A DNA stretch of 62,425 nt, the filler included, from Stramenopiles sp. TOSAG23-6 (Eukaryota): the NCBI GenBank assembly GCA_900128565.1. It is 36 parts of 36 records of this genome, joined end to end, with 100 filler letters (N's around TTAATTAATTAA, not from the genome) between each part and the next. Parts side by side here need not be neighbours in the genome. Positions count along the whole stretch, not along the records: positions 60,804 to 62,425 come from LT638782.1; 35 more parts are not named here. The stretch is one strand, 5' to 3'. The translations under genes were made by a program, and so were the position numbers. Shown piece after piece: positions 5,250 through 62,425 of this stretch (position 1 is the stretch's first letter; every line of letters begins with the position of its first letter). A model generated the notes under the pieces. It did no database searches and was not told the origin of the DNA. It saw only the letters and a list, made by a program, of their open reading frames with translations.

Positions 5250-6662
5250 GAAGAGGAAAAAGGAAGAGGATCAGAAGTACCAACACCACCAGTACCAACA
5301 CCACCACCAGTACCACCACCACAAGAACCACCACAAGAAGGAAAAGAAGGAAGACGTGAAGCAGCTGAGAAAGCTGCAACAAAAATCCAAGCTTATCAAC
5401 GTGGTCGTCAAGCAAGAGCTACAGTTGCCAAAAGAAACAGCAGCGTTCCTTTCGTTTTGAATGAAAAAGCTACTGGGGAAAATATTATTCTAACTTTGGC
5501 TAATCATGGCCGTGGGGCTTTGCGTATGGTAAGCAGAGCCTTTCAAAACCGTGTGGATGACATTCAAGATCGAATTTTACAGCAGAATCGTATAAAAGCA
5601 AGAGCGATGAGACTGGAAAAGAAATTCTTTGTTGATTATCTCCCGGACGAGTGGATGCAAGAAGTTTATTTTACGCCTCGATCAGCTGCCATAGATAAAG
5701 CTGATCTGGAAGACAACCTTGCCAAAGCGATTGAGGCTTCTCATAACGATTGTCGCGAAAAAGTGAGAAAAATATTAAGTGGTTTAGATCTAAAGCAAAT
5801 ATCATTAAGTGATTACTTTATACTTGCACTAACTAATGAAGGTAAGGTTTATTCATGGTCAAGAATCGGACCATGGCAAAGATCATCCAGAGAACCAATT
5901 GGTCGATCTTCCACAGACGAAAATAAATGTATTCCAATGATTATCGAAGGATTAAGTGACGTGGTGCAAATTTCATCTGCTAGACAACACAGTATTGCGT
6001 TAACAGGGAACGGAAAAGTATTCACTTGGGGTAGAGACGAGGGGCACTACTATGGGAGTCATCAAAAAGGATATATGTTTTACTTTTTTTCAATTTCAAT
6101 TTCGAGTTTTTTTTTTGGTTCTCGTACGAAATTTTGTACCTAACAAAGTTTACAAAGAAAAATATTTGTTCACAATACATACCTTGGTCAATTTAAAACA
6201 TACCCAGCCACAGAATACCGTAGTCAATTTAGTACTCTTCAAAACAATGTTTTTCATCCAACACTTGTGAAAGGAGTAAAGGGAATGTTTATTGTTGAAG
6301 TATATGCTTGGAATTCCACAACTTTACTACGATCAATATCTGGTCAAGTATTTTATTACGGTGATTTTATTGGTCCATTTGTTCCGAATATGTCTCGCCG
6401 AGATGGTAGCAAAGGTGTTGTACCATTGCCATTTCGTGTATTCCAATTTAGGAAAGGACAAAAAGTATTGGCTAAACATGACGACGGGCAATGGTACCCG
6501 GCTACTATTTTATGGGTGGGTATCGGTTATTATGATACAGATTACGAGGTAAAATTTGATGATGAAAAGAAGATACTGGTACCAGGAAGGAGTCGAAGGA
6601 GTGTCGGACAAAATGAGGAATTCATCCGATCAATGAATTCCGAGTCCGACTCTTCCAAATAA
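5250..6662 (+). CDS. RCC1-repeat protein with an IQ-like motif and a C-terminal Tudor-like domain; intron 6073-6180
   Basis: ALTNEGKVYSW, HSIALTGNGKVFTWGR, FRKGQKVLAKHDDGQWYPATI...YEVKFDD. Splicing gives KGY/LGQ in frame. Confidence 0.75.
6073..6180 (+). other. Family intron, AT-AT termini
   Basis: GGA T|ATATGTTTT...GTACCTAAC...CACAATACAT|AC CTT GGT. Confidence 0.75.
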
Positions 6663-40069: not shown

Positions 40070-41075
40070 GTAAGACTACAAATCATCGGGTAAGTAAATG
40101 CCACAAAAAGTACCAAAATCTTTGTTCCATTTTGTCTTGTCATGATTTTTGGAATAATAAGATGGATAATCAAAACACATAGAAGAAGAAACCATGGTGC
40201 ACAATTTAAGATAATAAATTGTTGAGGTAATGTTAGTCTAATGACACATGTAGTGTGAAAAATATTTCAAAAAAAATCATGAAAAAAAAAATCGTTAGGT
40301 ACAAAATTACGTACGAAAAAAAAAATTAGATAAAAAATTAAAAATAGTACAACAAACATGACAATGTCATAGATCCAAACTTCCCAAAAGATCCAACACT
40401 TAGATATCCGAAAAAATCAAAGAACTGGTAATACAAGTCTAATAACGTTTTTGTTACCACATATATTTTGGAAAAATATTTCAAAAAATTTTTTTTCCGT
40501 AAAAAAAAAAAAATTTTTTGGGAAAAAATTTTTTTTTTTCGTAAAAAAAAAAAAAAAAATGTAGACAATTTTTCCAAAAAAAAAAAAAAAAGTAAAACAT
40601 ATATTTGTTGTACTGATTCCAAAATTAACATCTGATAATGTTTTTGCTTGTGAATATTGAAAAACTATTTTAAAAATAACAGCGAAATTTTCATAAAAGT
40701 CTTTCAAAATCCACTTTCCATGAATTCGATTAATTGTTTTGTTTCTATCCTCCGACATTTCATTTATTATTTTCATGTATTTTGGAAAAATATTTCAAAA
40801 AATTTTTACGAAAAAAAAAATTTGTTAGGTACAAAAATTTTTTACCAAAAAAAAAAAAAAAAATAAATAAAATATACATAATTTTTCGTGCTTTCCATCT
40901 GTAAATTCCAACAATTACGGACAAGACTAACAAAACAATAATTGAAAAAATAATTAATCCTATCTTGATGTTCTCTTCTGATTCACAATCATAACACACT
41001 CCCCAATGTATATACATATCTGGAAAAAACACTTTGTTACCAAGCTTACAGAGATGACACAATGTATTGTGAAAA

Positions 41076-43432: not shown

Positions 43433-43585
43433 NNNNNNNNNNNNNNNNNNNNNNNNNNNNNNNNNNNNNNNNNNNNTTAATTAATTAANNNNNNNNNNNN
43501 NNNNNNNNNNNNNNNNNNNNNNNNNNNNNNNNTGTACCTAACGATTTTTTTTAGATTTTTTTTGAAATATTTTTCCAAAATACAT

Positions 43586-45138
43586 GCTTCCAAAACCACT
43601 TGTGATTAGATCAACTTCAAAGTTACAGCTTCAAGCGAAGGATGAGAATTCTTTGTTTTCTGTAACAATTACTGATATTTTTAATTCTCCAGTTGAAAAA
43701 TGCCGAGTTACTTTGTATGTTTTCATCATGAATTTTTTTTTTCATACAAAATTTTGTACCTAACAAAATTTTTTTTTTTTTTTTAAATTTATATTTTTTT
43801 ACAATACTGGAGTGCATTTCGCGTGAAGGAATATTTACTCGAAGAAGTTCCCATGTCTTTGAAAGGTAATTCAAAATCTGTGTACGAATACAATTTCTTG
43901 TCTGCTAATCCAGATATTGGGTTATTCGATCTTGATATAAAAATCACACCATTAGATGAAGACAGTCCTATTATTGTGCCACGTGTCATTATGTACGTTT
44001 TCATCCTTCATTGTACATTTTAAAATGTATTTTTAAAATGTATTTTTAAAATTTTTTTTTTAAATGTATTTTTAAAATGTATTTTTAAAATGTATTTTTA
44101 AAATGTATTTTCAATTTCGATTTTGTTGTACTGTGAAAATTTTTCTTCCTCACGAGTTTTCGAATTTGGTGTAATTCTTTATGATGCATGATTACAACTT
44201 CAGTATCGGTAGAAGAAGTTACTATTTGGGTGGATCGAACCGAGACTTCAAGATATGTACGTTTTCATTATTTTTTTTGCCTTTTTTTTTTTTTCGTACG
44301 ACATTTTGTACCTAAGAACAAAAATCTTGTACTATTTTTTCACAATACATCCTTCTGGTAAAGATAAAAAGATTACAGCATTGTCTCCAAATGCAGTCGA
44401 TTCAGTGTTGAATGTAGACATAAATGAAGTTTTGCATGTCATGTTTGAACCTCTTTCTGCAACAAGTGGTGATACAATAAATCCACATCAAGCATTTCTT
44501 AAAATTCAACACAAGGCATCGAATGTTGATACAATTTTTGTGGCTGTGGCGAATGAAGTTGATGGGAAATACACTATTTCTTGCCCTATTAATGATATTG
44601 ACGCTTGGAAGTCGACTTCAGGTCTTCATTCTTTGACACTCTACATCGGAGATCCGAAATTGAATCAATTTTTCGAATGGCAATTTGCTAAAGTTAACTT
44701 GACATTACAAGAAAAAGTTGTACCAGAATTGTGTACGTTTTCAAAATTGAATTTCGAATTTATTTATTTTTTCGTAAAAACAATTTTGTGTCTAACAAAT
44801 GTCGAATGTAAAATATACTTTCACAAAATATCCTTATATACGAGATCTCTTCTTCATGTACGTTTTCATTATTCATTTCAAATTTATTTATTTTTTTTCA
44901 TACGAAATTTTCTAAGTAAGAAATTGAATTGTTTTTTTGAGTTTTTATTCGATACGTTTTTCATTATTCATTTTTTATTTATATTTGTTTTTGTATTTTT
45001 TATTCTTATAATTTTATTTTTTGTATTTATTAAAAGTTGTATCAAAATTACAAAACTAACAAATTTTATTATAGAAACATATTTTGTACAAAATATCATA
45101 CAGACACAACCCTTATCGCCCTTCCTGAAATTAGTCAT
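43586..45138 (+). CDS. RPN2: Oligosaccharyltransferase subunit ribophorin II fragment, six exons separated by family introns
   Basis: PHQAFLKIQH, SGLHSLTLYIGD, LYTRSLLH/TDTTLIALPEISH. Introns 43715-43809, 43993-44189, 44257-44350, 44733-44831, 44858-45096. Confidence 0.85.
43715..43809 (+). other. Family intron, GT-TG termini
   Basis: ACT TT|GTATG...CAATACTG|G AGT GCA is the in-register, frame-restoring junction. Confidence 0.65.
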
Positions 45139-48100
45139 GTACGTTTTATTTTTTTTTCAATTNNNNNNNNNNNNNNNNNNNNNNNNNNNNNNNNNNNNNN
45201 NNNNNNTTAATTAATTAANNNNNNNNNNNNNNNNNNNNNNNNNNNNNNNNNNNNNNNNNNNNTGTACCTAACGATTTTTTTTAGATTTTTTTTGAAATAT
45301 TTTTCCAAAATACATGCTTCCAAAACCACTTGTGATTAGATCAACTTCAAAGTTACAGCTTCAAGCGAAGGATGAGAATTCTTTGTTTTCTGTAACAATT
45401 ACTGATATTTTTAATTCTCCAGTTGAAAAATGCCGAGTTACTTTGTATGTTTTCATCATGAATTTTTTTTTTCATACAAAATTTTGTACCTAACAAAATT
45501 TTTTTTTTTTTTTTAAATTTATATTTTTTTACAATACTGGAGTGCATTTCGCGTGAAGGAATATTTACTCGAAGAAGTTCCCATGTCTTTGAAAGGTAAT
45601 TCAAAATCTGTGTACGAATACAATTTCTTGTCTGCTAATCCAGATATTGGGTTATTCGATCTTGATATAAAAATCACACCATTAGATGAAGACAGTCCTA
45701 TTATTGTGCCACGTGTCATTATGTACGTTTTCATCCTTCATTGTACATTTTAAAATGTATTTTTAAAATGTATTTTTAAAATTTTTTTTTTAAATGTATT
45801 TTTAAAATGTATTTTTAAAATGTATTTTTAAAATGTATTTTCAATTTCGATTTTGTTGTACTGTGAAAATTTTTCTTCCTCACGAGTTTTCGAATTTGGT
45901 GTAATTCTTTATGATGCATGATTACAACTTCAGTATCGGTAGAAGAAGTTACTATTTGGGTGGATCGAACCGAGACTTCAAGATATGTACGTTTTCATTA
46001 TTTTTTTTGCCTTTTTTTTTTTTTCGTACGACATTTTGTACCTAAGAACAAAAATCTTGTACTATTTTTTCACAATACATCCTTCTGGTAAAGATAAAAA
46101 GATTACAGCATTGTCTCCAAATGCAGTCGATTCAGTGTTGAATGTAGACATAAATGAAGTTTTGCATGTCATGTTTGAACCTCTTTCTGCAACAAGTGGT
46201 GATACAATAAATCCACATCAAGCATTTCTTAAAATTCAACACAAGGCATCGAATGTTGATACAATTTTTGTGGCTGTGGCGAATGAAGTTGATGGGAAAT
46301 ACACTATTTCTTGCCCTATTAATGATATTGACGCTTGGAAGTCGACTTCAGGTCTTCATTCTTTGACACTCTACATCGGAGATCCGAAATTGAATCAATT
46401 TTTCGAATGGCAATTTGCTAAAGTTAACTTGACATTACAAGAAAAAGTTGTACCAGAATTGTGTACGTTTTCAAAATTGAATTTCGAATTTATTTATTTT
46501 TTCGTAAAAACAATTTTGTGTCTAACAAATGTCGAATGTAAAATATACTTTCACAAAATATCCTTATATACGAGATCTCTTCTTCATGTACGTTTTCATT
46601 ATTCATTTCAAATTTATTTATTTTTTTTCATACGAAATTTTCTAAGTAAGAAATTGAATTGTTTTTTTGAGTTTTTATTCGATACGTTTTTCATTATTCA
46701 TTTTTTATTTATATTTGTTTTTGTATTTTTTATTCTTATAATTTTATTTTTTGTATTTATTAAAAGTTGTATCAAAATTACAAAACTAACAAATTTTATT
46801 ATAGAAACATATTTTGTACAAAATATCATACAGACACAACCCTTATCGCCCTTCCTGAAATTAGTCATGTACGTTTTATTTTTTTTTCAATTNNNNNNNN
46901 NNNNNNNNNNNNNNNNNNNNNNNNNNNNNNNNNNNNTTAATTAATTAANNNNNNNNNNNNNNNNNNNNNNNNNNNNNNNNNNNNNNNNNNNNTGTACCTA
47001 ACGATTTTTTTTAGATTTTTTTTGAAATATTTTTCCAAAATACATGCTTCCAAAACCACTTGTGATTAGATCAACTTCAAAGTTACAGCTTCAAGCGAAG
47101 GATGAGAATTCTTTGTTTTCTGTAACAATTACTGATATTTTTAATTCTCCAGTTGAAAAATGCCGAGTTACTTTGTATGTTTTCATCATGAATTTTTTTT
47201 TTCATACAAAATTTTGTACCTAACAAAATTTTTTTTTTTTTTTTAAATTTATATTTTTTTACAATACTGGAGTGCATTTCGCGTGAAGGAATATTTACTC
47301 GAAGAAGTTCCCATGTCTTTGAAAGGTAATTCAAAATCTGTGTACGAATACAATTTCTTGTCTGCTAATCCAGATATTGGGTTATTCGATCTTGATATAA
47401 AAATCACACCATTAGATGAAGACAGTCCTATTATTGTGCCACGTGTCATTATGTACGTTTTCATCCTTCATTGTACATTTTAAAATGTATTTTTAAAATG
47501 TATTTTTAAAATTTTTTTTTTAAATGTATTTTTAAAATGTATTTTTAAAATGTATTTTTAAAATGTATTTTCAATTTCGATTTTGTTGTACTGTGAAAAT
47601 TTTTCTTCCTCACGAGTTTTCGAATTTGGTGTAATTCTTTATGATGCATGATTACAACTTCAGTATCGGTAGAAGAAGTTACTATTTGGGTGGATCGAAC
47701 CGAGACTTCAAGATATGTACGTTTTCATTATTTTTTTTGCCTTTTTTTTTTTTTCGTACGACATTTTGTACCTAAGAACAAAAATCTTGTACTATTTTTT
47801 CACAATACATCCTTCTGGTAAAGATAAAAAGATTACAGCATTGTCTCCAAATGCAGTCGATTCAGTGTTGAATGTAGACATAAATGAAGTTTTGCATGTC
47901 ATGTTTGAACCTCTTTCTGCAACAAGTGGTGATACAATAAATCCACATCAAGCATTTCTTAAAATTCAACACAAGGCATCGAATGTTGATACAATTTTTG
48001 TGGCTGTGGCGAATGAAGTTGATGGGAAATACACTATTTCTTGCCCTATTAATGATATTGACGCTTGGAAGTCGACTTCAGGTCTTCATTCTTTGACACT

Positions 48101-48773
48101 CTACATCGGAGATCCGAAATTGAATCAATTTTTCGAATGGCAATTTGCTAAAGTTAACTTGACATTACAAGAAAAAGTTGTACCAGAATTGTGTACGTTT
48201 TCAAAATTGAATTTCGAATTTATTTATTTTTTCGTAAAAACAATTTTGTGTCTAACAAATGTCGAATGTAAAATATACTTTCACAAAATATCCTTATATA
48301 CGAGATCTCTTCTTCATGTACGTTTTCATTATTCATTTCAAATTTATTTATTTTTTTTCATACGAAATTTTCTAAGTAAGAAATTGAATTGTTTTTTTGA
48401 GTTTTTATTCGATACGTTTTTCATTATTCATTTTTTATTTATATTTGTTTTTGTATTTTTTATTCTTATAATTTTATTTTTTGTATTTATTAAAAGTTGT
48501 ATCAAAATTACAAAACTAACAAATTTTATTATAGAAACATATTTTGTACAAAATATCATACAGACACAACCCTTATCGCCCTTCCTGAAATTAGTCATGT
48601 ACGTTTTATTTTTTTTTCAATTNNNNNNNNNNNNNNNNNNNNNNNNNNNNNNNNNNNNNNNNNNNNTTAATTAATTAANNNNNNNNNNNNNNNNNNNNNN
48701 NNNNNNNNNNNNNNNNNNNNNNACAAAATTTCGTACGAAAAAAAATTCGAATTTGAAAAAAAATAAAACATAC

Positions 48774-52080: not shown

Positions 52081-52319
52081 NNNNNNNNNNNNNNNNNNNN
52101 NNNNNNNNNNNNNNNNNNNNNNNNTTAATTAATTAANNNNNNNNNNNNNNNNNNNNNNNNNNNNNNNNNNNNNNNNNNNNAAAAAGAACTACAATCTCTC
52201 TAGTCAAAATCTAACTTTTAAAATATGTTCAAAATTGAATTTCAAATTTATATTTTTTTTTTCGTACGCATTTTTGTAACTAACAATTTTTTACTATTTT
52301 TTTTTTTTTCACAATACAT

Positions 52320-53360
52320 ACGTCAAACTATTCTGGGGAATTAACATTATTGAAGGATAGTTTATGTTGTCCTATCTATAATGTAAACTCTTTTGATAAC
52401 CAACATTTATTATTAAAAGTTTGCGATAAAGAAGCCTATAAACAGGCGAATCGAATTTCAACATCAAAACAATCTCGCGCGGTGTATAATACTAATGCAT
52501 CTATTGCCTCTCCTTTTCCTAAAATTGACAGTTTTGTACGGTCATATTTAAGTAGTATTCCTGGACCAATGCCACCGTGTATCCGACAGTCTACTTTTTT
52601 ACCACCAAGTACAATTGTATATGAAATTTCACAAAATCGATATTGTGAACGTATCAGGAGAGAGCATCGATCAAATAATGTGTATTATGTAGCTAATATA
52701 CAAAAGTCTACAGTAAAAGATGATACTATTGCCGGTGATAAAAATATCGTAGGTGGTTGGTTGTACCAAAAATGTCATGATATCGAGTGTAAACAATCAA
52801 ATTTTAGATCTAATGGTGTTCCTATCCCACATAATGTTACTGTAGATATCGGTTGGAATTGGGATAACGAATGCCTTGAGAGTGGTAAAAATGAAAATGT
52901 GTCACCCAGTACAGCGAAAAGTGTACTTTTAAATAATGTTGAGAAGTCTTGTTGTGACATTTCAGATAATGTAGATGATAATTGGCTTGATGATGATGAC
53001 GATGATGTAATATTGGCTGCTGTTGAGGACGTGGAACGTTCTATATTAGATAGTAGTCTACTGACGAATGTTTCAGAAAACACAGATGATGATCAAATAG
53101 ATGATGATCAAATAGATGATGATGCAATATTAGCTGCTGTTATGGACGTGGAACGTTCAATGTTGGATAGTAGTCAACTCTTATCAGAAAACACAGATGA
53201 TGATCAAATAGATGACGATGCAATAGATGACGATGCAATATTAGCTGCTGTTGAAGATGTGGAAAGGAGTCAATTTTCAATGATTGAAAAGGAAGAGGAT
53301 GAAATAGATAAAAGCTCTTGTTTGGCCATGGATGAATTCGAGAGCTCATTTATGATTTAA
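52320..53360 (+). CDS. PRIMPOL: PrimPol C-terminal UL52-type zinc finger and acidic tail
   Basis: NRYCERIRREHRSNNVYY...YQKCHDIEC...FRS; preceded by a probable AT-AT intron 52223-52319. Confidence 0.88.
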   Translation, partial: TSNYSGELTLLKDSLCCPIYNVNSFDNQHLLLKVCDKEAYKQANRISTSKQSRAVYNTNASIASPFPKIDSFVRSYLSSIPGPMPPCIRQSTFLPPSTIVYEISQNRYCERIRREHRSNNVYYVANIQKSTVKDDTIAGDKNIVGGWLYQKCHDIECKQSNFRSNGVPIPHNVTVDIGWNWDNECLESGKNENVSPSTAKSVLLNNVEKSCCDISDNVDDNWLDDDDDDVILAAVEDVERSILDSSLLTNVSENTDDDQIDDDQIDDDAILAAVMDVERSMLDSSQLLSENTDDDQIDDDAIDDDAILAAVEDVERSQFSMIEKEEDEIDKSSCLAMDEFESSFMI

Positions 53361-53913
53361 CTATACACTGGACACAACATCATGATTGATAAAAACCTTT
53401 TTTAATAAATATACTTAATAATAATTTGTTCATATTTGCTTTGCATAATCTCCATAGTGTTTTTTTTACTGAAACATTATAATACTCCAGAATCATATCC
53501 TACAGTTGTGATTACTTCATCAAATCTTGCATCCACAACAGCAGCTGCTTTTGAAGATTTTGGCCTTTTTGAAAATATCTTCTGCCGTATTTTTATCACG
53601 AGAAAAATTACAAGCAAAAATATCACTATACCCGATGTGATCAATCCAATCATGAGATTTTTAGAAATTTTCCTTTTTGAGTTCTCTTTTTCAATTTCAT
53701 TCTTCTTGTTAAACCCTGGACCGTCATTTTGTGGATCCGTTTTATTGATACCAGCAGCAGCTTTATCAGCAGCAGCTTTATCCGCAGCAGCTTTATCCGC
53801 AGCAGCNNNNNNNNNNNNNNNNNNNNNNNNNNNNNNNNNNNNNNNNNNNNTTAATTAATTAANNNNNNNNNNNNNNNNNNNNNNNNNNNNNNNNNNNNNN
53901 NNNNNNCACTTAC

Positions 53914-53931
53914 CGAGGCTGCACTACCCAT
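53914..53931 (-). CDS. Possible first exon MGSAAS (N-myristoylation-like) with a canonical donor
   Basis: ATG GGT AGT GCA GCC TCG|GTAAGT, divergent from TSR1. Confidence 0.35.
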
Positions 53932-54273
53932 ATTCTACAGTAGTTTACTAATCCTATTCTGTTGCTAATCCTATTCTCGTCAACGACAACACCATATCAT
54001 TTTATTGATTAAAGTATAGCGTAAAAATGATATTTTTAGTCTTCGTTGGTACAATAAATAATTGATTTACACGACTTGAAACTGTCACAACTCTAAAACA
54101 CGAAACCCAAACACTGTAAAATATTTTTGTACATAATATTTGTACGTAAAGCGAATTGAAATCGAAATGTGCTGACTCCAAAGTGATTGATGTTCAGCTC
54201 TATATGTGGCTCTTTTCTAGCTAGTGTATCGTAGTGTAGTATTGGTAATTCTAACTTCGATTTACAATTAACC

Positions 54274-55481
54274 ATGGTAAATGAGACCCACCGCCATCGT
54301 TCTGGTACTCAAAAGCAGAAAAATAAGACACACAAGCGAAGTAATATTAGTAAGCGTGCTTTGAAAAGATCAGCTCCAGGTCGTATTGAAGCGCCGACTA
54401 AGCGCATTTCAATTAAAGCTGGCGAAAAAGTCAATAATGCAAAAAGAAAAAAGAACCGGGCCAAGCAGCTGAAGCAGCAAAAATTGGACCGATTACGTTC
54501 TCAGCGCCGCCTTGGTGGAGGTTCTAACGCACCAAAGGTTGTTTCTATACTACCATTAGCAGAAGGTGTCGATATTAATTCAATAGTGTCTGGTTTAACC
54601 GGAAGCACCGGGACAACTCCTAGTTGTTCTCCTCTTGGACATGCGACGGTCGAGTCTCGTAAGCTCAAGCAACGCTTTACATTTATACCGACTATGCGTA
54701 GCGTTCCGGGCGTACTAGATGCTGCTAAAGTAGCTGATGTTATTGTAGTTGTTCTCCCAGCACAGCATGGACAAGAGCACTGCATTGATGAGTTAGGTGA
54801 TGCTTGTATTTCTGCCTTGAGAGCTCAAGGTCTTCCAGCAGTGATATGTTTGACTACTGGTTTAAAGCAACTTCCACCAAAGCGCGCCCCAGAGATGCGT
54901 AAATATGCAAAGCGACTTTTTACAACTGAGTTTGGCGATTCAGTAAAAGTTCTTGATGATGGGAACTATTTCCACGTACTAAGGGCCTTAAGTGACGTTC
55001 GATTGAAGGAATTGAAATGGCGAAATTTGAGACCATATATTGTTGCTGATTCTTACAATCTATCAGAAGGTTCAAACAACGATTCATCAAATTTGGTGAA
55101 TCTTCAAGTGAAAGGTTACCTTCGAGGATCGGCATTATCACCAAACCAATTGGTTCATATCACAGACGTTGGAACATTTCCGTTACAAACTATGTATGTT
55201 TTATTTTTTTTCAATTTCGATTTTTTTTTTCGTACGAAATGTTGTACCTAACAAATTTTAGTTTTTTTTTTTTTAAATATTTTCCAAAATACATTTCTGG
55301 TACTTCTGATCCCTGTAAAACAAAAAGGTCAAAAATATTGGATGAAGAAAAACTTCTTTTGACTTCTGATCCTTCTATTGTAAATGAAGATTTCATGCGC
55401 TCCGAGGTGATGCCGACAGATGATTGTTGTGAACAAACCTGGCCAACCCAAGAGGAAATGGCGGTAGCTAGAATGGAGTAT
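54274..55481 (+). CDS. TSR1: Pre-rRNA processing protein TSR1, 5' part; GT-AT intron 55194-55294
   Basis: HRHRSGTQKQKNKTHK; LDAAKVADV; LRAQGLP; WRNLRPY; GYLRG...NQLVHITDVGTF; EQTWPTQEEM. Confidence 0.95.
55194..55294 (+). other. Consensus-like family intron, GT-AT termini
   Basis: ACT AT|GTATGTTTT...CGTACGAAATGTTGTACCTAAC...TCCAAAATACAT|T TCT GGT. Confidence 0.9.
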
Positions 55482-55686
55482 GTATGTTTTATTTTTTTTT
55501 TTTAACAAAAAAATCGAATTTATTTTTCGTACNNNNNNNNNNNNNNNNNNNNNNNNNNNNNNNNNNNNNNNNNNNNTTAATTAATTAANNNNNNNNNNNN
55601 NNNNNNNNNNNNNNNNNNNNNNNNNNNNNNNNGTACGAAATTTTGTACCTAACGATTTTTTTTTGAAATATTTTTCCAAAATACAT

Positions 55687-57169
55687 GCCTTGCGTTTGAA
55701 ACATGTTTCTCAGCCCCTACTGTCGCAGTATTTAGTACAGATCGTTGGTATTACCTTTTAATACAAGGAATTTTATTAGGTTTATTGCTTGATGTCGTTC
55801 AATTTGAATTATTTTTAATTGTCACTCAATCGATGGCTAGATTTGAAAATTGGGAAACTGCAACAGCGTATGATTTTTCATTGGCAAAAAAACAATTTTT
55901 ATTCTTATGGGTGAATATGTATGTCTGGTTTTGGGGACTTGGGTTAATATATGTACCATATGGTCCATTTATTTGTGAATACTTAATTCGAATTGGTATG
56001 GGATATTTAGTGCCTGCAAAGGGATGGATGGATAATACAATTAATGTCGATGAAGCTTTTCTTACTCCGCTTGTAGCAACGCAAAGTATAAATCTTTTAT
56101 TAGAAACTTTAGTGCCATATTATATTGGTAAAGCAATGCACAAAAGTAAACGAAAAGCAAAAAAGAAGAGGCACCAAAAGATCATAAAAGAAGGCCATAC
56201 AGAACCAAGAGAAATGACTGGGTTGGAGATTCAACTACGAGAAAAAGGTCTTGGGTCTCTTAAAAAAGGATGGAAACTTTTAAAATCTTCACGAGTACAA
56301 TTACGTGGTTATGCCAAACAAGCACCAACAGCTGGAACTAAAGTATTCAGTGCTATAGCTCATGTTTTTAAAACATCAGAGGAAGAGAAAGGTCGAAAAC
56401 GAAAAAAACTAGCGAAAACATTATTAAAACAAGTTTATTCCCAAATGCAGGAAGCTGATGGCGTTTCCTGTGATATGAAGAAGTTAGATATGCTCGATGC
56501 TTTATATTCTGATTATTATGTGCTGGATATGGTACAAAATGGGGCAGGTGGAGTCTTACGACCAATGTTGTCTATACGAGGTGACTTGGCACGAAATTTA
56601 GCAAAATATAGAACAGTAAGAGAAGGATATATCTCATTTGAAGAGTTATGGAACTGGTCACTTCAAACGAATTTGTGGAAAGAGAATATACTATCTTATA
56701 ATTCTAAAGATGGCGTTGGTGACATCAACACAAAATCGCTTATCAACACAAGTTCACATCAAAGGGAGATGATTGCTGCTGTATTAGCAAAATACTCATC
56801 CGGAATATCTTACTGTCAATCACTAGCTGCAGTTGTTGGAAGAAAATATCATGTAAAAATTGATGTACATTTGGAAACACCTGATATGAATGAGTATTGT
56901 GCAACGGATGTGACGGAGCAAAGCTTACTTGGCCAGTTTGATCCGAGAGATGATTTTTTGGATGTATTGCTTCAGCTAGGATATCAACTTCAATTTACTG
57001 TAGCATGGCCCTTTATACCACTGTGTTGTTTAGTGAATAATTACTTTGAAATTCCGTCGGATTTATTTAAACTTTTGTTTACATGTGCACGCCCTATTCC
57101 AAGACAACAAGACAGTTTAGCAGAATGGGAAACTATGCTGTGGTGGGAGCCAATACTTTCATGTCCAAT
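55687..57169 (+). CDS. Anoctamin/TMEM16 family protein, internal exon
   Basis: MARFENWETATAYDFSLAKKQFLFLWVN; DDFLDVLLQLGY...AWPFIPLCCLVNNYFEIPSDLFKLL...RPIP. Confidence 0.9.
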
Positions 57170-57419
57170 GTATGTTTTATTTTTTTTTCAAATTCTATTT
57201 TGTTTCGTACGAAATTTTGTACCTAACGTTTTTTTTTTCAAATATTTTTCCAAAATANNNNNNNNNNNNNNNNNNNNNNNNNNNNNNNNNNNNNNNNNNN
57301 NTTAATTAATTAANNNNNNNNNNNNNNNNNNNNNNNNNNNNNNNNNNNNNNNNNNNNTAGGTACAAAATTTACTATAAAAAAATAAATTCGATTTTTTTG
57401 TAAAAAAAAAAAAAAATAT

Positions 57420-58144
57420 TCTTTTTTTTTGGGGGGGGGGGGAACCTACTCCTCCAGTAAAAGGTAAATCCGTTGGTAGCCCAAGTACGATCGATCCGTC
57501 AATGTGACGTCCGTCTACATGTATTTTGTAAAAATATTTCAAAAAAATTTTCGTAAAAAAAAAATTTGTTAGGTACAAAATTTCGTACGAAAAAAATAAA
57601 TTCGATTTTTTTTTTACCGGAAAAAAAAAAAAATAAAACACACACCTAAGAAGGGAATGCCTATTGGCCCATATTCACGATCACTAAATGTACCATATCC
57701 AGGAGTATTGTAATCTTTGAAACCACCTCCATAGTCAGAGCCTTTGACATGGATTATGAAAAAATATTTCAAAAAATTTTCTATAAAAAAAAAAATTGTT
57801 AGGTACAAAATTTCGTACGAAAAAAAAAATTCGAATTTGAAAAAATATAAAACATACATACATTTGCTCCCAATTGGTAAACTCTGGTCGGAAATTTTGT
57901 GGTGAACTTTTTCTTTGGTTTGCTTTTGATGTTGAATCAACACTTTGTTCTTTTATGGCTTTTATGGCTTTTGTGGCTTTTATGGATGTAGAGACAGTTG
58001 TATCTGATTTTTTTTTCTTGATTTTGAATGCATTATTCCGAAGCGCCAAAGCATGAACACTTGACGTTTGGTGTAAGACATTGAAAGAATGAAAGTAATA
58101 TGAAATTGTAATAATATGAAATAAAAATGAACTGGTCATAGTCA
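57420..58144 (-). CDS. Predicted secreted hypothetical protein; family introns 57749-57857 and 57519-57643
   Basis: Exons join in frame: WEQMY/VKGSDYGGG...PFLG/VDGRHIDGS. Confidence 0.6.
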
Positions 58145-58538
58145 CTAAAATTATGGAATTTTGTTTTACTAAGCCCTTCTTTTACATGCAAGTTGCAAAG
58201 ACATCATAAACGATCAATATCTGATCTCGATCTTCTAGTTTTATATTTTGATCTTTGAAATTTGAATTGAAAAAAATTCACCAAAATCCCCGGTGATTTC
58301 GGAGAAAAAAAGAAAAAGTTACCCGGCACCCAAACCGAAATGGAGCGAGGTAAAAAATTATTGTTATTTTGAAGCATTTTGAGCATTTTGCTTTCTTCGA
58401 AGCGAAACCAAACAAAAAACGTGTGTCCTCGTCCTCTGTACTTCGTCGTACTACACAACATTATTATAAAGTGGACGTGTTTATATATTAACCAAAAGAG
58501 AGAGCCTCAGAGAAAGTCTTTGATTATTCTCTTGTGGC

Positions 58539-58981
58539 GATGGACATTACTGTGGACTCGGAAGTGCTGCACGTGAATACCAACGGCACGCCACCCGCTT
58601 CCTCCATTTCAAAGAAAGAGATTTCTCAAACTCCTGAGGGTCCTAGTAAAGGGGAACTTACGGATCCAAAAAGCATAGCCAGTACTGAAAACGATATCAC
58701 CGAAAATAATGTGTCAACCCTAAATACAACGAAAGACGATAGTACGATGGATACCAAATCTGAGAAAATAGATAAACCTCAATTATCAGTGGAGAACCAA
58801 AAAGAAGAACATAGGATGTCGAGTTCTTTGTCGAGTTCCGAAAGTACGTCGAGTTCCGAAAGTATTACATCAAAGGCTGCAGAAAGTAAAGGGGAAGTAG
58901 ACACTAGTGTAGAAACATCGGAGGAAAAAGTTTCACAGTCCTCACCTAAGAATCAAATAGAAAAATCGGAGGAAAAAGTTT
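58539..58981 (+). CDS. Ser/Glu/Lys-rich hypothetical protein, N-terminus
   Basis: ORF open to the scaffold end. Confidence 0.45.
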
Positions 58982-59132
58982 NNNNNNNNNNNNNNNNNNN
59001 NNNNNNNNNNNNNNNNNNNNNNNNNTTAATTAATTAANNNNNNNNNNNNNNNNNNNNNNNNNNNNNNNNNNNNNNNNNNNNTGAAAATTTTGTACCTAAC
59101 AAATTTCGAATTTAATTTTTTTTACAATACAT

Positions 59133-60618
59133 GTGATCCTGCTTTTCAAAGGTATTATACTGATGATAATGCACGTGTATGTCTTAATTTTTTTTCAAAT
59201 TGTTTTTTTTTTCGTACGAAAGTTCGTACCTAACAAATTTTAGTTTTTTTTTTTTGAAATATTTTTCCAAAATACGTTCACTTCTAGCTGGATTAGCAAC
59301 TCGGTCACTTTTGCGTAACTCGGCATGGGACTCTATCATTGTAAGTGCTGTACTAGCTAATTTGCGTATGGCTGGTCCAAGTGGCTTTGCAGATGGATCA
59401 CTAATGTTTAGTGATATTGCAAAAAGTGGTTGGGAGGCACGATCTGCAAAGGATCACAAGAATATTAAGAGTGTATATTCACCACACTACCAATCTTACA
59501 TTTGGGCTGTTTTCCTTCGAATGTATAAAATAACTGGATACAAACCTCTTTTAGAAAAGGCCAAAAATGCCATTTCAAATATGATGGACAAGTACCCTGA
59601 ATGGTGGCAAAGTACGAGCAATGGTATCACAATGCAACGGGCACGAATGATTTTGCCACTTGCATGGTTAGTCATGGTAGAAGACACACCGGAGCATCGG
59701 CAGTGGCTTGATGTAATTACTCAGGGTTTGCTTGAAAGACAAGATATAAAAACGGGTGCGATTCGTGAGGAAATAAGTGGTAAAGGTTGGGGGTCCAGTG
59801 CACGTGTACCAAACAACACAAATTACGGTACATTTGAAGCACCGCTTAACCAGTCAAATGAAGATCCAGTAAGCGATCTTTTGTATGTTTTATTTTTTTT
59901 CAAATTCGAATTTATTTATTTTTTTATAAAAATTTTGTACCTAACGAATTTTTTTTTGAAATATTTTTACAAAATACATGTACACAACAAACTTTGCTTT
60001 TCTTGGTCTTCATGAAGCAGTACATGTATGTTTTAAAAATTGATTTTTTTGGTCTAAACATTTTTTTATAGGATTTTTTTTTTACAAAGAAAAAAATGTA
60101 TATTTTTGTACCACTAATGCTGTTGGTCCAACAACTGAAATGGGAAAACGATATATGGCAGCTGAGGATCGTCTGGCAAATTTGCTAGTTCGTGCACAGG
60201 TTACCAGTGGTGCTGTTTGGTCCAATGAGGATACAGACACGACAGATTGGGAACACACTGAGCTAAATGGGGCATGTATGTTTTCATCATGAATTTATTA
60301 TTTTTTTTTCGTACGAAATTTCGTACCTAACAAAACAAATTACAAAAAAAAATATTTTTTCACAATAAATGGTTTCGTGCCTTTGATTTTGAAAAGTGGG
60401 AATATTGGGCTTCTGATAGTGATATTGGTTGGGGGGCATGTACATTTTCATAATGGATTGAAAATTAATTTATTTTTGTACCAAATTTTGTACTTCTGAA
60501 AAAAAATCGAATTTGACATATTTTTTCATAAAACATGGTCTATTGAGACAGGTTGGACACAAGCATGGATTAGCTCTGTATTTGCCATGCGTCAACTAAA
60601 TCAGAGTTTGTGGGACAT
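59133..60618 (+). CDS. Six-hairpin glycosidase-like protein; family introns 59177-59277, 59883-59979, 60026-60118, 60276-60370 and 60440-60536
   Basis: Spliced product: YTDDNARSLLA...ERQD...NYGTFEAPL...DPVSDLLYTTNFAFLGLHEA...LNGAWFRAFDFEKWEYWASDSDIGWGAWSIETGWTQAWI. Confidence 0.75.
59177..59277 (+). other. Family intron, GT-GT termini with GT repeated at both junctions
   Basis: GCA CGT|GTATGT...CAAAATACGT|TCA CTT. Confidence 0.75.
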
Positions 60619-60861
60619 GTATGTTTTATTTTTTTTTTTTTGTATGAATTTTTTTTCATACGAAATTTTGTACCTAACAAATTTTTTTAGATTTTTTTTG
60701 AAANNNNNNNNNNNNNNNNNNNNNNNNNNNNNNNNNNNNNNNNNNNNTTAATTAATTAANNNNNNNNNNNNNNNNNNNNNNNNNNNNNNNNNNNNNNNNN
60801 NNNACTTTGTAAAAATATTTCAATTTTTTTCTTGTTAGTTTATTGGGTACAAAATTTCATA

Positions 60862-60897
<36 letters not shown>

Positions 60898-60989
60898 TTT
60901 TTTAGGGACAAAATTTCATAGTAATTTTTTTTTTTTTTTTTTTTTTGTTAGTTTATTAGGTACAAAATTCTCTATTAAAAAAAACATAC

Positions 60990-62365
60990 ATATTCTTTCC
61001 GTCTACCTATAAATTTTTTCATATTATTCCATGACCAAGAATATTTTAGTGCATTTTTATAGTTTTGATGAAAATCATTATTTTTATTAAAATCACCAGT
61101 AGTAGATTGAGATACATTTGGAATTTGTGTCTTTGACGATTTCATGAGTTGTTTTTGAGCTATACTGTATTGTACAAAAATATTTTTTTTTTTTGAGATT
61201 TTTAATTTTTTTTCGTTAGGTACAAAATTTCCTACAAAACAAAAAATTAAAATTTTGAAATATATATTTTTTTTTTAAATGTTTTTTGTTAGGTACAAAA
61301 TTTACTACAAAAAAAAAATTGAAATTTTGAAAACATATATACATCGACAAGCATGAATCCACCAAAGCTTTGGTAGTTGAGATATTGATATATTTGGCCG
61401 ATGCTCCCGACACGATTCTACAACACGAAATATGCGTATTGCATTTTCAAGTGCTATGACGTCATCGTATTGTCTCTGATGAAAGTGTACATTCATATTT
61501 TCAAAATTAGCTTTAATTTGTAATTTAGGAAAATTTAAATTCATTTTATCATTTAATGCTATATGAGCTTCAACAGAGATAGGAAGTAAAATATGATGAG
61601 AAAATTTTGATTTTTTTGATTTTTTTGTTTTTTTTGTTTTTTTTGATATTTTTGATATTTTTGTTTTTTTTGTTGTTTTGGTTGGACTAGGGTTAGGGTT
61701 TGTAGATGATGTTTCTTCATAAATCATTTTCAAGAGTTTTTCGTGTCGTGTCTCTCTACAATTTTCTTTTGATATCAATTTCACCATCGTCGATTTCCAA
61801 TACAGTGAAACATCAGATAGACGTCCAAACTTGAAAACTCTCGTTTCATGTATTACAAAACATATTTGAAATATTTAAAAATTGTTAGGTACAAAATTTC
61901 GTACGAAAAAAAAAATTTAAATTAAAAAAAAAATTTTTGAAATGTTTTTTTTGAAATGTTTTTTTTGAAATGTTTTTTTTGAAATGTTTTTTTTGAAAAT
62001 GTTTTTTTTGAAATTTTTGAAAACGTATATTTTTATTCGACTCTATTGATTCATCATGAAATATAGTCTCATCATCTGCATTTACTGTTTTTATACTACA
62101 ATATTTGAGAGTTAAACCAACAGCAAAATTATTTTTATTTGAATATTCATCTTCATATCGAATAAATTTTGGGAAAATATTTCAAATTTTTTTTTTACAT
62201 TTTTGTTACAATCGATTTTTTTTTGTTTTACTATACAAATTTCGTATTTAAAAAAAAAAANTTAAAACCTTTGGTACAAAATTTCGTATTTAAAAAAATT
62301 ATACATTCCAAATTGAAATAAAGTATGANAACGTACATGTGAAGATTACAAATGTCTATTTGAAT
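60990..62365 (-). CDS. VPS13: VPS13 N-terminal (chorein) region; family introns 62162-62336, 61848-62028 and 61165-61338
   Basis: IQIDICNLHI/RYED; FAVGLTL; SLYW; QRQYDD; LWWIHA; WSWNNM...RRKEY. Confidence 0.9.
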
Positions 62366-62425
62366 ATGAGTTTTGGAAAAATATTTCAAAAAAAATCTAA
62401 AAAAAATTGTTAGGTACAAAATTTC

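Follow-up and report, generated by a model that had tools for sequence, protein, structure and literature searches.

The first and last guanosines of introns removed by the major spliceosome are treated as invariant, because they pair with each other during exon ligation. A stretch of DNA from Stramenopiles sp. TOSAG23-6 raises the question of whether the first of them can be dispensed with, as the original prediction had it: five introns were read as beginning with A (ATATGT or ATACGT donors), and both terminal guanosines were proposed to be relaxed. The stretch analysed (the window; 62,425 nt) joins 36 contigs, each of about 1.65 kb, through N spacers, and comes from the assembly (G000) of a marine eukaryote, 21.1 Mb in 6236 contigs. 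In a Prp8 tree of 47 sequences picked from 120 matches, the genome falls within the stramenopiles, outside the ochrophyte and oomycete clades and beside environmental sequences.

The genome carries a high-copy family of introns of about 100 nt (1792 matches to one strict pattern genome-wide, duplicates counted in). Its consensus is (C/T)AT^GTAYGTTTT...TTTTGTACCTAAC...AATACAT^, or in shorter form AT^GTAYGTTT...GTACCTAAC...AATACAT^, where ^ marks the splice site. The branch motif, GTACCTAAC, lies 34–48 nt from the 3′ end (5th–95th percentile; search window 23–63 nt). In the local intron set these distances form two clusters, at around 35 and 45 nt and thus some 10 nt apart, and 62 of the 163 introns of that set contain, downstream of the branch motif and ahead of the AT acceptor, an AG that splicing would have to skip. 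A short inverted repeat (GTAT/ATAC) marks the two intron ends, accompanied by a 2-nt duplication, and ends other than AT are often a copy of the exon end (TT/TT in 6 cases, GT/GT in 6, AC/AC in 3, AA/AA in 3 and AG/AG in 2). Identical duplicate and palindromic contigs (window positions 43533–48622; C148, C1159 and C1695–C1706) inflate counts and reveal artefacts of assembly.

Five candidate introns that begin with A

All five hexamers are present, at 6073 and 52223 on the plus strand and at 40602, 61338 and 62028 on the minus strand. The proposals that each restores the reading frame and that none is a U12 donor were both borne out: splicing leaves an open frame at all five sites, retention of the intron leads to a stop within 11–57 codons, and the donors read ATAYGTTT, with no ATATCC among them. 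Judged by their sequence, the introns at 62028 and 6073 are solidly predicted as AT–AT introns, and those at 40602 and 52223 more weakly so.

The 181-nt AT..AT intron at 61848..62028 (minus strand; donor AAT^ATACGTTT, acceptor TAATACAT^, branch motif at 61884–61892) interrupts a VPS13-like gene and joins ...ESNKN to ETRVFKF... in frame. Its junction can be placed as AT..AC, TA..CA or AT..AT and nowhere as GT or GC, and its donor forms 9 Watson–Crick pairs with the U1 of this genome, as against 3+2 at the nearest GT. The upstream exon (62029..62163, minus strand, taken from its IRYED motif) has the motif and spacing of VPS13 relatives. The following exon (61339..61847, minus strand) has 11 relatives and matches the VPS13A chain at E 6e-4 and Pfam VPS13_N at E 2.9e-12, a match under the curated cut-off. 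A search of metagenome contigs for independent copies of the VPS13 exon returned five exact 20-letter matches, all by chance, the likeness ending at 20 letters.

The next intron of this gene (61165..61338, minus strand; branch motifs at 61288–61296 and 61215–61223) had been read as AT–AG. Its donor TAT^ATATGTTT at 61338 competes with a GT donor at 61342, and its acceptor is either the AG at 61165 (174 nt), which is in register for the 61338 donor, or the AT at 61162 (177 nt). Against an HMM of 11 VPS13 relatives, the AT..AG model to 61165 scores 102.5 bits and a GT..AT model from 61342 to 61169 scores 95.3 bits; the 177-nt AT..AT model, whose mRNA is identical to that of GT..CA from 61342, scores 105.7 bits. 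All three models are in frame. With 8+2 U1 pairs at 61338 against 7+1 at 61342, the A+1 donor is probable, but the AT–AG pairing is not established. The exon beyond (60990..61164, minus strand, …SWSWNNMKKF…) precedes an ordinary GT donor at 60989. Internal duplication has lengthened both of these introns: 61165–61338 contains a second branch motif and 61848–62028 a 14-nt tandem repeat.

The intron at 6073..6180 (plus strand, 108 nt, AT..AT, branch motif at 6136–6144) lies in an RCC1-repeat gene with RCC1 domains identified by Pfam, joins HQKG^YLGQ in frame and has no placement as GT or GC. At 40461..40602 (minus strand, 142 nt, AT..AT) the frame is likewise restored and a GT/GC placement is absent; the GTACCTAAC motif is missing or mis-assembled, and the surrounding sequence is homopolymer-rich. 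The probable 97-nt AT..AT intron at 52223..52319 (plus strand, donor AAA^ATATGTTC) belongs to a primase-zinc-finger (PrimPol-like) gene, its downstream exon matching Pfam PF03121. Its frame is open, but the contig extends only 42 nt upstream and the donor is weak, with 7 of 11 U1 pairs.

Purines at the first intron position

Varied at +1 alone, the strict pattern was found genome-wide with G 1721 times, A 70, C 1 and T 0, duplicate contigs included; backwards-pattern controls gave 0. Where the exon ends in a base other than T, the counts were 51 for A and 429 for G, and at least 2 of these 51 hold a downstream GT donor. At G+5, a pyrimidine replaces G in 94 matches (hand count; C 27, T 67, some T possibly being deletions). 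Such changes thus happen in the motif but are nearly excluded at +1, where there is one in 1792. Mutation bias accounts for part of the 70:1 skew towards A: a control G in the branch motif had changed to A in 20 matches and to T in 2, and a second control G to A in 4, C in 4 and T in 1. Even with the A share set to 90%, however, one pyrimidine among 71 non-G bases at +1 has a probability of 0.005. G+1 is purine-restricted, not dispensable. The original prediction was right that A+1 donors are used but went too far in calling G+1 dispensable, since G stays at about 96% and pyrimidines are nearly absent.

At the second position, T+2 is replaced in 73 matches by hand count (C 34, A 31, G 8); GA and GG donors are about as common as GC, so T+2 appears to be relaxed to any base.

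Among 35 curated A+1 introns, 31 have no GT- or GC-equivalent placement and four have a GT-equivalent one. A+1 occurs in both +4 subtypes (20 T, 15 C) and is commoner after exon C (6 of 38 unique copies versus 70 of 1791, p 0.004), which together suggest recurrent mutation at +1, possibly by CpG-like decay. Two other associations were rejected: coupling of A+1 to T-3, as in a compensated inverted repeat (6/35 versus 14/126, p 0.39), and A+1 as a third duplicated base, the following exon beginning with A in just 12 of 35.

At the acceptor, G has been replaced by T in 119 of 126 curated G+1 introns and in 28 of the 35 A+1 introns. The proposed genome-wide tally of A+1 donors against acceptor type (n=74) gave T 60, C 9, A 4 and G 1; among G+1 introns the last base is A or T in 1453, C in 26 and G in 43. 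The GY..AG termini by which U2-type introns are recognised are thus not those of the A+1 introns, 60 of 74 of which run AT..AT and one of which ends in AG. That both terminal guanosines are relaxed holds for the donor, where A is a tolerated minority; the acceptor G is replaced by T, not relaxed. A C acceptor is more frequent in A+1 introns (9/74 versus 26/1522, p 1.6e-5), but the exon ends in AC for seven of these nine, so the A..C excess is confounded. After exon C, A+1 makes up 6/23 of the introns whose acceptor is C and 6/38 of those whose acceptor is T (unique copies, p 0.34); stratified by exon end, the coupling of A+1 to C-1 is not significant and is not claimed here. In most of the 43 GT..AG members the preceding exon ends in AT, hence their AG is not copied from the exon end; a mild preference for the G–G pair may persist.

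RNA junctions and a recoded U1

Five seawater RNA runs from two studies contain 8–19% of the words of window positions 52426–62425. Junctions were scored in four runs on contig C1114 (L103), outside the window, in a V-ATPase d gene with two A+1 introns. High RNA depth over intron repeats, which reflects multi-mapping, was left out of the evidence, and uncovered stretches were not taken as absence. Three junctions of this gene show exact removal from mRNA. At a depth of 6.2, RNA contig X3 record 16 aligns with 575–676 of L103, and its loose end of 18 letters agrees at 17 positions with the upstream exon, starting at 776. The 99 nt that it removes can be placed as AT..TC, TA..CA, AT..AT or TA..TA and nowhere as GT or GC; a 139-nt GT..AT intron that has no AG placement is also spliced out in this contig. 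The second A+1 intron (94 nt) is removed exactly in two contigs (X2 and X3, two samples of one study), at a junction that also allows a GT..AT placement at slide +4. An A+1 donor is therefore used at one unambiguous junction, seen in one run at low depth and outside the window.

The genes for U5, U2, U1 and U4 lie head to tail within 650 bp (L009:9-645, contig C1146; duplicated on C6122), and that for U6 lies on C3740. U2, U4, U5 and U6 all score above Rfam cut-offs, and the U2 branch segment, U5 loop 1 and the U6 ACAGAGA box equal the Rfam consensus. The U1 match (54 bits, E 7.5e-12) is under its cut-off of 69.5. Recoding of its 5′ end affects positions 2, 5 and 9 (AAACGUACAUG versus the Rfam consensus AUACUUACCUG). 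Predicted pairing of this U1 with CAU^GUACGUUU is 11 of 11, including exon −1, where A9 of U1 replaces C9. Because the recoded U1 pairs in full with the consensus, an A+1 donor would lose the C8 pair alone and keep about 9; C8, the partner of G+1, is retained, which fits G staying the majority base. On these predicted pairings the recoded U1 explains the donor consensus; the incomplete assembly may lack a second U1 of canonical sequence.

If A+1 copies were damaged introns, they would be rescued by a nearby GT (at +5 or −4) or left unspliced. Every ATAYGT does contain a GT at +5, a GT lies at −4 of 61338, the four GT-equivalent placements noted above are of this kind, and in other RNA contigs another intron of the V-ATPase d gene, its first, is unspliced (X1 record 3). 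A GT fallback would, however, save C+1 and T+1 copies equally, and these number 1 and 0; U1 forms 5–7 pairs at the +5 GT against 7–10 at the A+1 site; and the 99-nt RNA junction has no GT placement. We regard damage with rescue as unlikely.

The pairing counts also bear on the register of the cut. As AT stands on both sides of the junction, a cut two bases upstream would yield the same mRNA, as in the 102 of 126 G+1 introns where exon end and intron end are identical. All family introns would then be AT–AC, and the variable G/A would be +3. The donor consensus GTRAGT has a purine at +3, so that purine-only variation would be normal there, and the tested RNA junctions, with AT on both sides, are compatible with either register. 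Against the upstream cut, U1 forms on average 10.3 pairs with 126 G+1 donors and 9.1 with 35 A+1 donors in the chosen register, compared with 6.0 and 5.6 at −2. Where exon and intron ends differ, the changed copy is upstream in 27 cases and downstream in 4, the pattern predicted for splicing at the downstream AT. With the upstream cut, the 99-nt and 139-nt introns supported by RNA would read AT..TC and AT..AT rather than AT..AC. A stop-codon test (76 informative of 182 introns) gave one case each way; that for G+1 (L133) has a clean consensus, whereas that for AT–AC has a degenerate donor. Overall, the upstream register seems improbable to us. A 194-nt intron outside the family, in the V-ATPase d gene (L103:1510-1703, minus strand), also runs GT..AT, ends in ATACAT and cannot slide, which suggests that AT acceptors also occur outside the repeat family. 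Several RNA-library contigs run unspliced through this intron.

Sequencing or assembly error is a very improbable source of the A+1 bases: the assembly is fragmented, with duplicate contigs and homopolymer breaks, and 40602 lies in poor sequence, but errors would not be A-only (70:1:0), and both A bases recur in a near-duplicate contig, which may not be independent. Still less credible is U12-type splicing. AT–AT, AT–AG and GT–AT termini are described among U12 introns in the available text of two reports (PMC1557818; 10.1101/2020.10.12.336362), but the ATATCC/RTATCCT donor is absent, the donor is complementary to U1, the branch lies 34–48 nt from the 3′ end, and searches of the incomplete assembly gave no match to U12 or U6atac genes, which does not prove their absence. 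Just as implausible is non-spliceosomal removal by a mechanism specific to the element and directed at its terminal repeats, which the GTAT/ATAC inverted repeat and 2-nt duplication, like those of transposon-derived introns, might suggest but which the matching U1, the U2-type branch motif and the non-sliding 194-nt intron oppose.

A model and its relation to other splicing systems

We consider it probable that the A+1 introns are ordinary members of the dominant GT–AT family that have undergone a G-to-A mutation at +1, and that they are spliced by the major (U2-type) spliceosome. In such a scheme the U6 ACAGAGA box would define the cut through pairs with positions +4 to +6, U1 and U6 together setting its position. 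The 3′ site would be chosen by a long fixed motif 34–48 nt past the branch A, with A-2 and C-3 kept and U at −1. Lacking its usual G-1 partner in step 2, G+1 could change to A cheaply, a purine still being needed. The G+1/G-1 pair (10.1101/212811, available text) would be replaced while the A-2 and C-3 contacts persist, and isosteric terminal pairs (Supplementary Table S2 of PMC13326754) may be relevant to whether G–U and A–U would fit. A+1 would arise recurrently by transition, not as a separate mobile subfamily.

More tentatively, and at somewhat less than even likelihood, the whole major spliceosome may have been rewired to a default of AU^RU...AU instead of AG^GU...AG, with U1 recoded at its exon −1 partner, the step-2 G+1/G-1 pair turned into a purine/U contact, Prp8 changed near the docking site, and old introns switched along with the mobile family. 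Prp8 (L052:5086-9999, contig C84, minus strand; intronless over 1637 residues) keeps the alpha-finger glutamine motif but is changed at 38 columns with conservation of 95% or more among 120 matches. Its changes at near-invariant columns fall at residues 521-522, 1006, 1421, 1550, 1556 and 1621-1623, the last of which adjoin N-rich sequence and may be an assembly artefact. Two conservative changes lie in a segment that we take to be the RNase H beta-hairpin. These changes may offer a lead; in the yeast P complex, according to the available text, the hairpin clamps the terminal pair and its mutations suppress 3′ site defects (10.1101/212811). A U2AF65-like ORF of 654 residues (L159:664-2628, contig C433) seems to carry its first RRM twice. 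No U2AF35 appeared among 15 zinc-finger matches, and a short motif pattern gave 0 matches in the incomplete assembly.

Comparisons with other systems draw on the available portions of the cited reports. In Fritillaria borealis (PMC13326754), U2-type non-canonical introns also use A+1 donors (AG/AC 18%, AG/AT 16%), AT is the commonest 3′ end, a YAY triplet stands before the donor and at the acceptor, and a transposon origin is proposed. There, however, termini are very diverse, U2AF is duplicated, and the text describes no dedicated U1, both versions having identical 5′ ends with weak complementarity to non-canonical donors; TOSAG23-6 has one tight consensus with T+2 kept, G at 96% and A at 4% of first positions, and a recoded U1. 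Entamoeba and Mastigamoeba likewise have a U1 5′ end altered to fit an atypical donor, that of Mastigamoeba sharing the ACGUAC core, but the described changes affect intron +3, +4 and beyond (10.1101/2022.06.08.495308), whereas in TOSAG23-6 the change extends to the partner of exon −1 (C9 to A), and introns have AT acceptors.

U2-type AT–AC (type II) introns and yeast G1A suppression indicate that a U2 spliceosome can use A+1 (PMC1557818; 10.1101/212811). As described, A+1 in those introns needs C-1, and they make up 0.008% of human U2 introns (PMC1557818); in TOSAG23-6, A+1 reaches about 4% and 60 of 74 such introns end in T. The Physarum U12 introns share the AT–AT, AT–AG and GT–AT pairs but are reported as minor-spliceosome introns with RTATCC donors and a branch 9–12 nt from the end, at 0.8% of introns (10.1101/2020.10.12.336362). 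Introners (PMC11282704) resemble the family in being high-copy, near-identical introns with a terminal inverted repeat and a short target duplication, the latter putative in TOSAG23-6, where it would supply AT, not AG. A literature search in which subscription journals were thinly covered returned no title on GT–AT or AT–AT introns, or on a recoded U1, in a stramenopile. What is added here is the purine rule at +1, an RNA junction without GT placement and the recoded U1.

In this genome, which standard gene callers mis-splice, most introns lack the last G and about 4% lack both guanosines, a share some 500 times that of U2-type A+1 introns in human. A U1 recoded to a new junction, together with a purine-only +1, makes this a natural setting in which to ask whether catalysis or proofreading requires the terminal pair, and how spliceosome and invading introns evolve together. 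If the rewired AU^RU...AU code is true, it would test in nature which contacts of the terminal bases splicing needs. A U1 rewritten to match unusual junctions points to a naturally altered splicing code.
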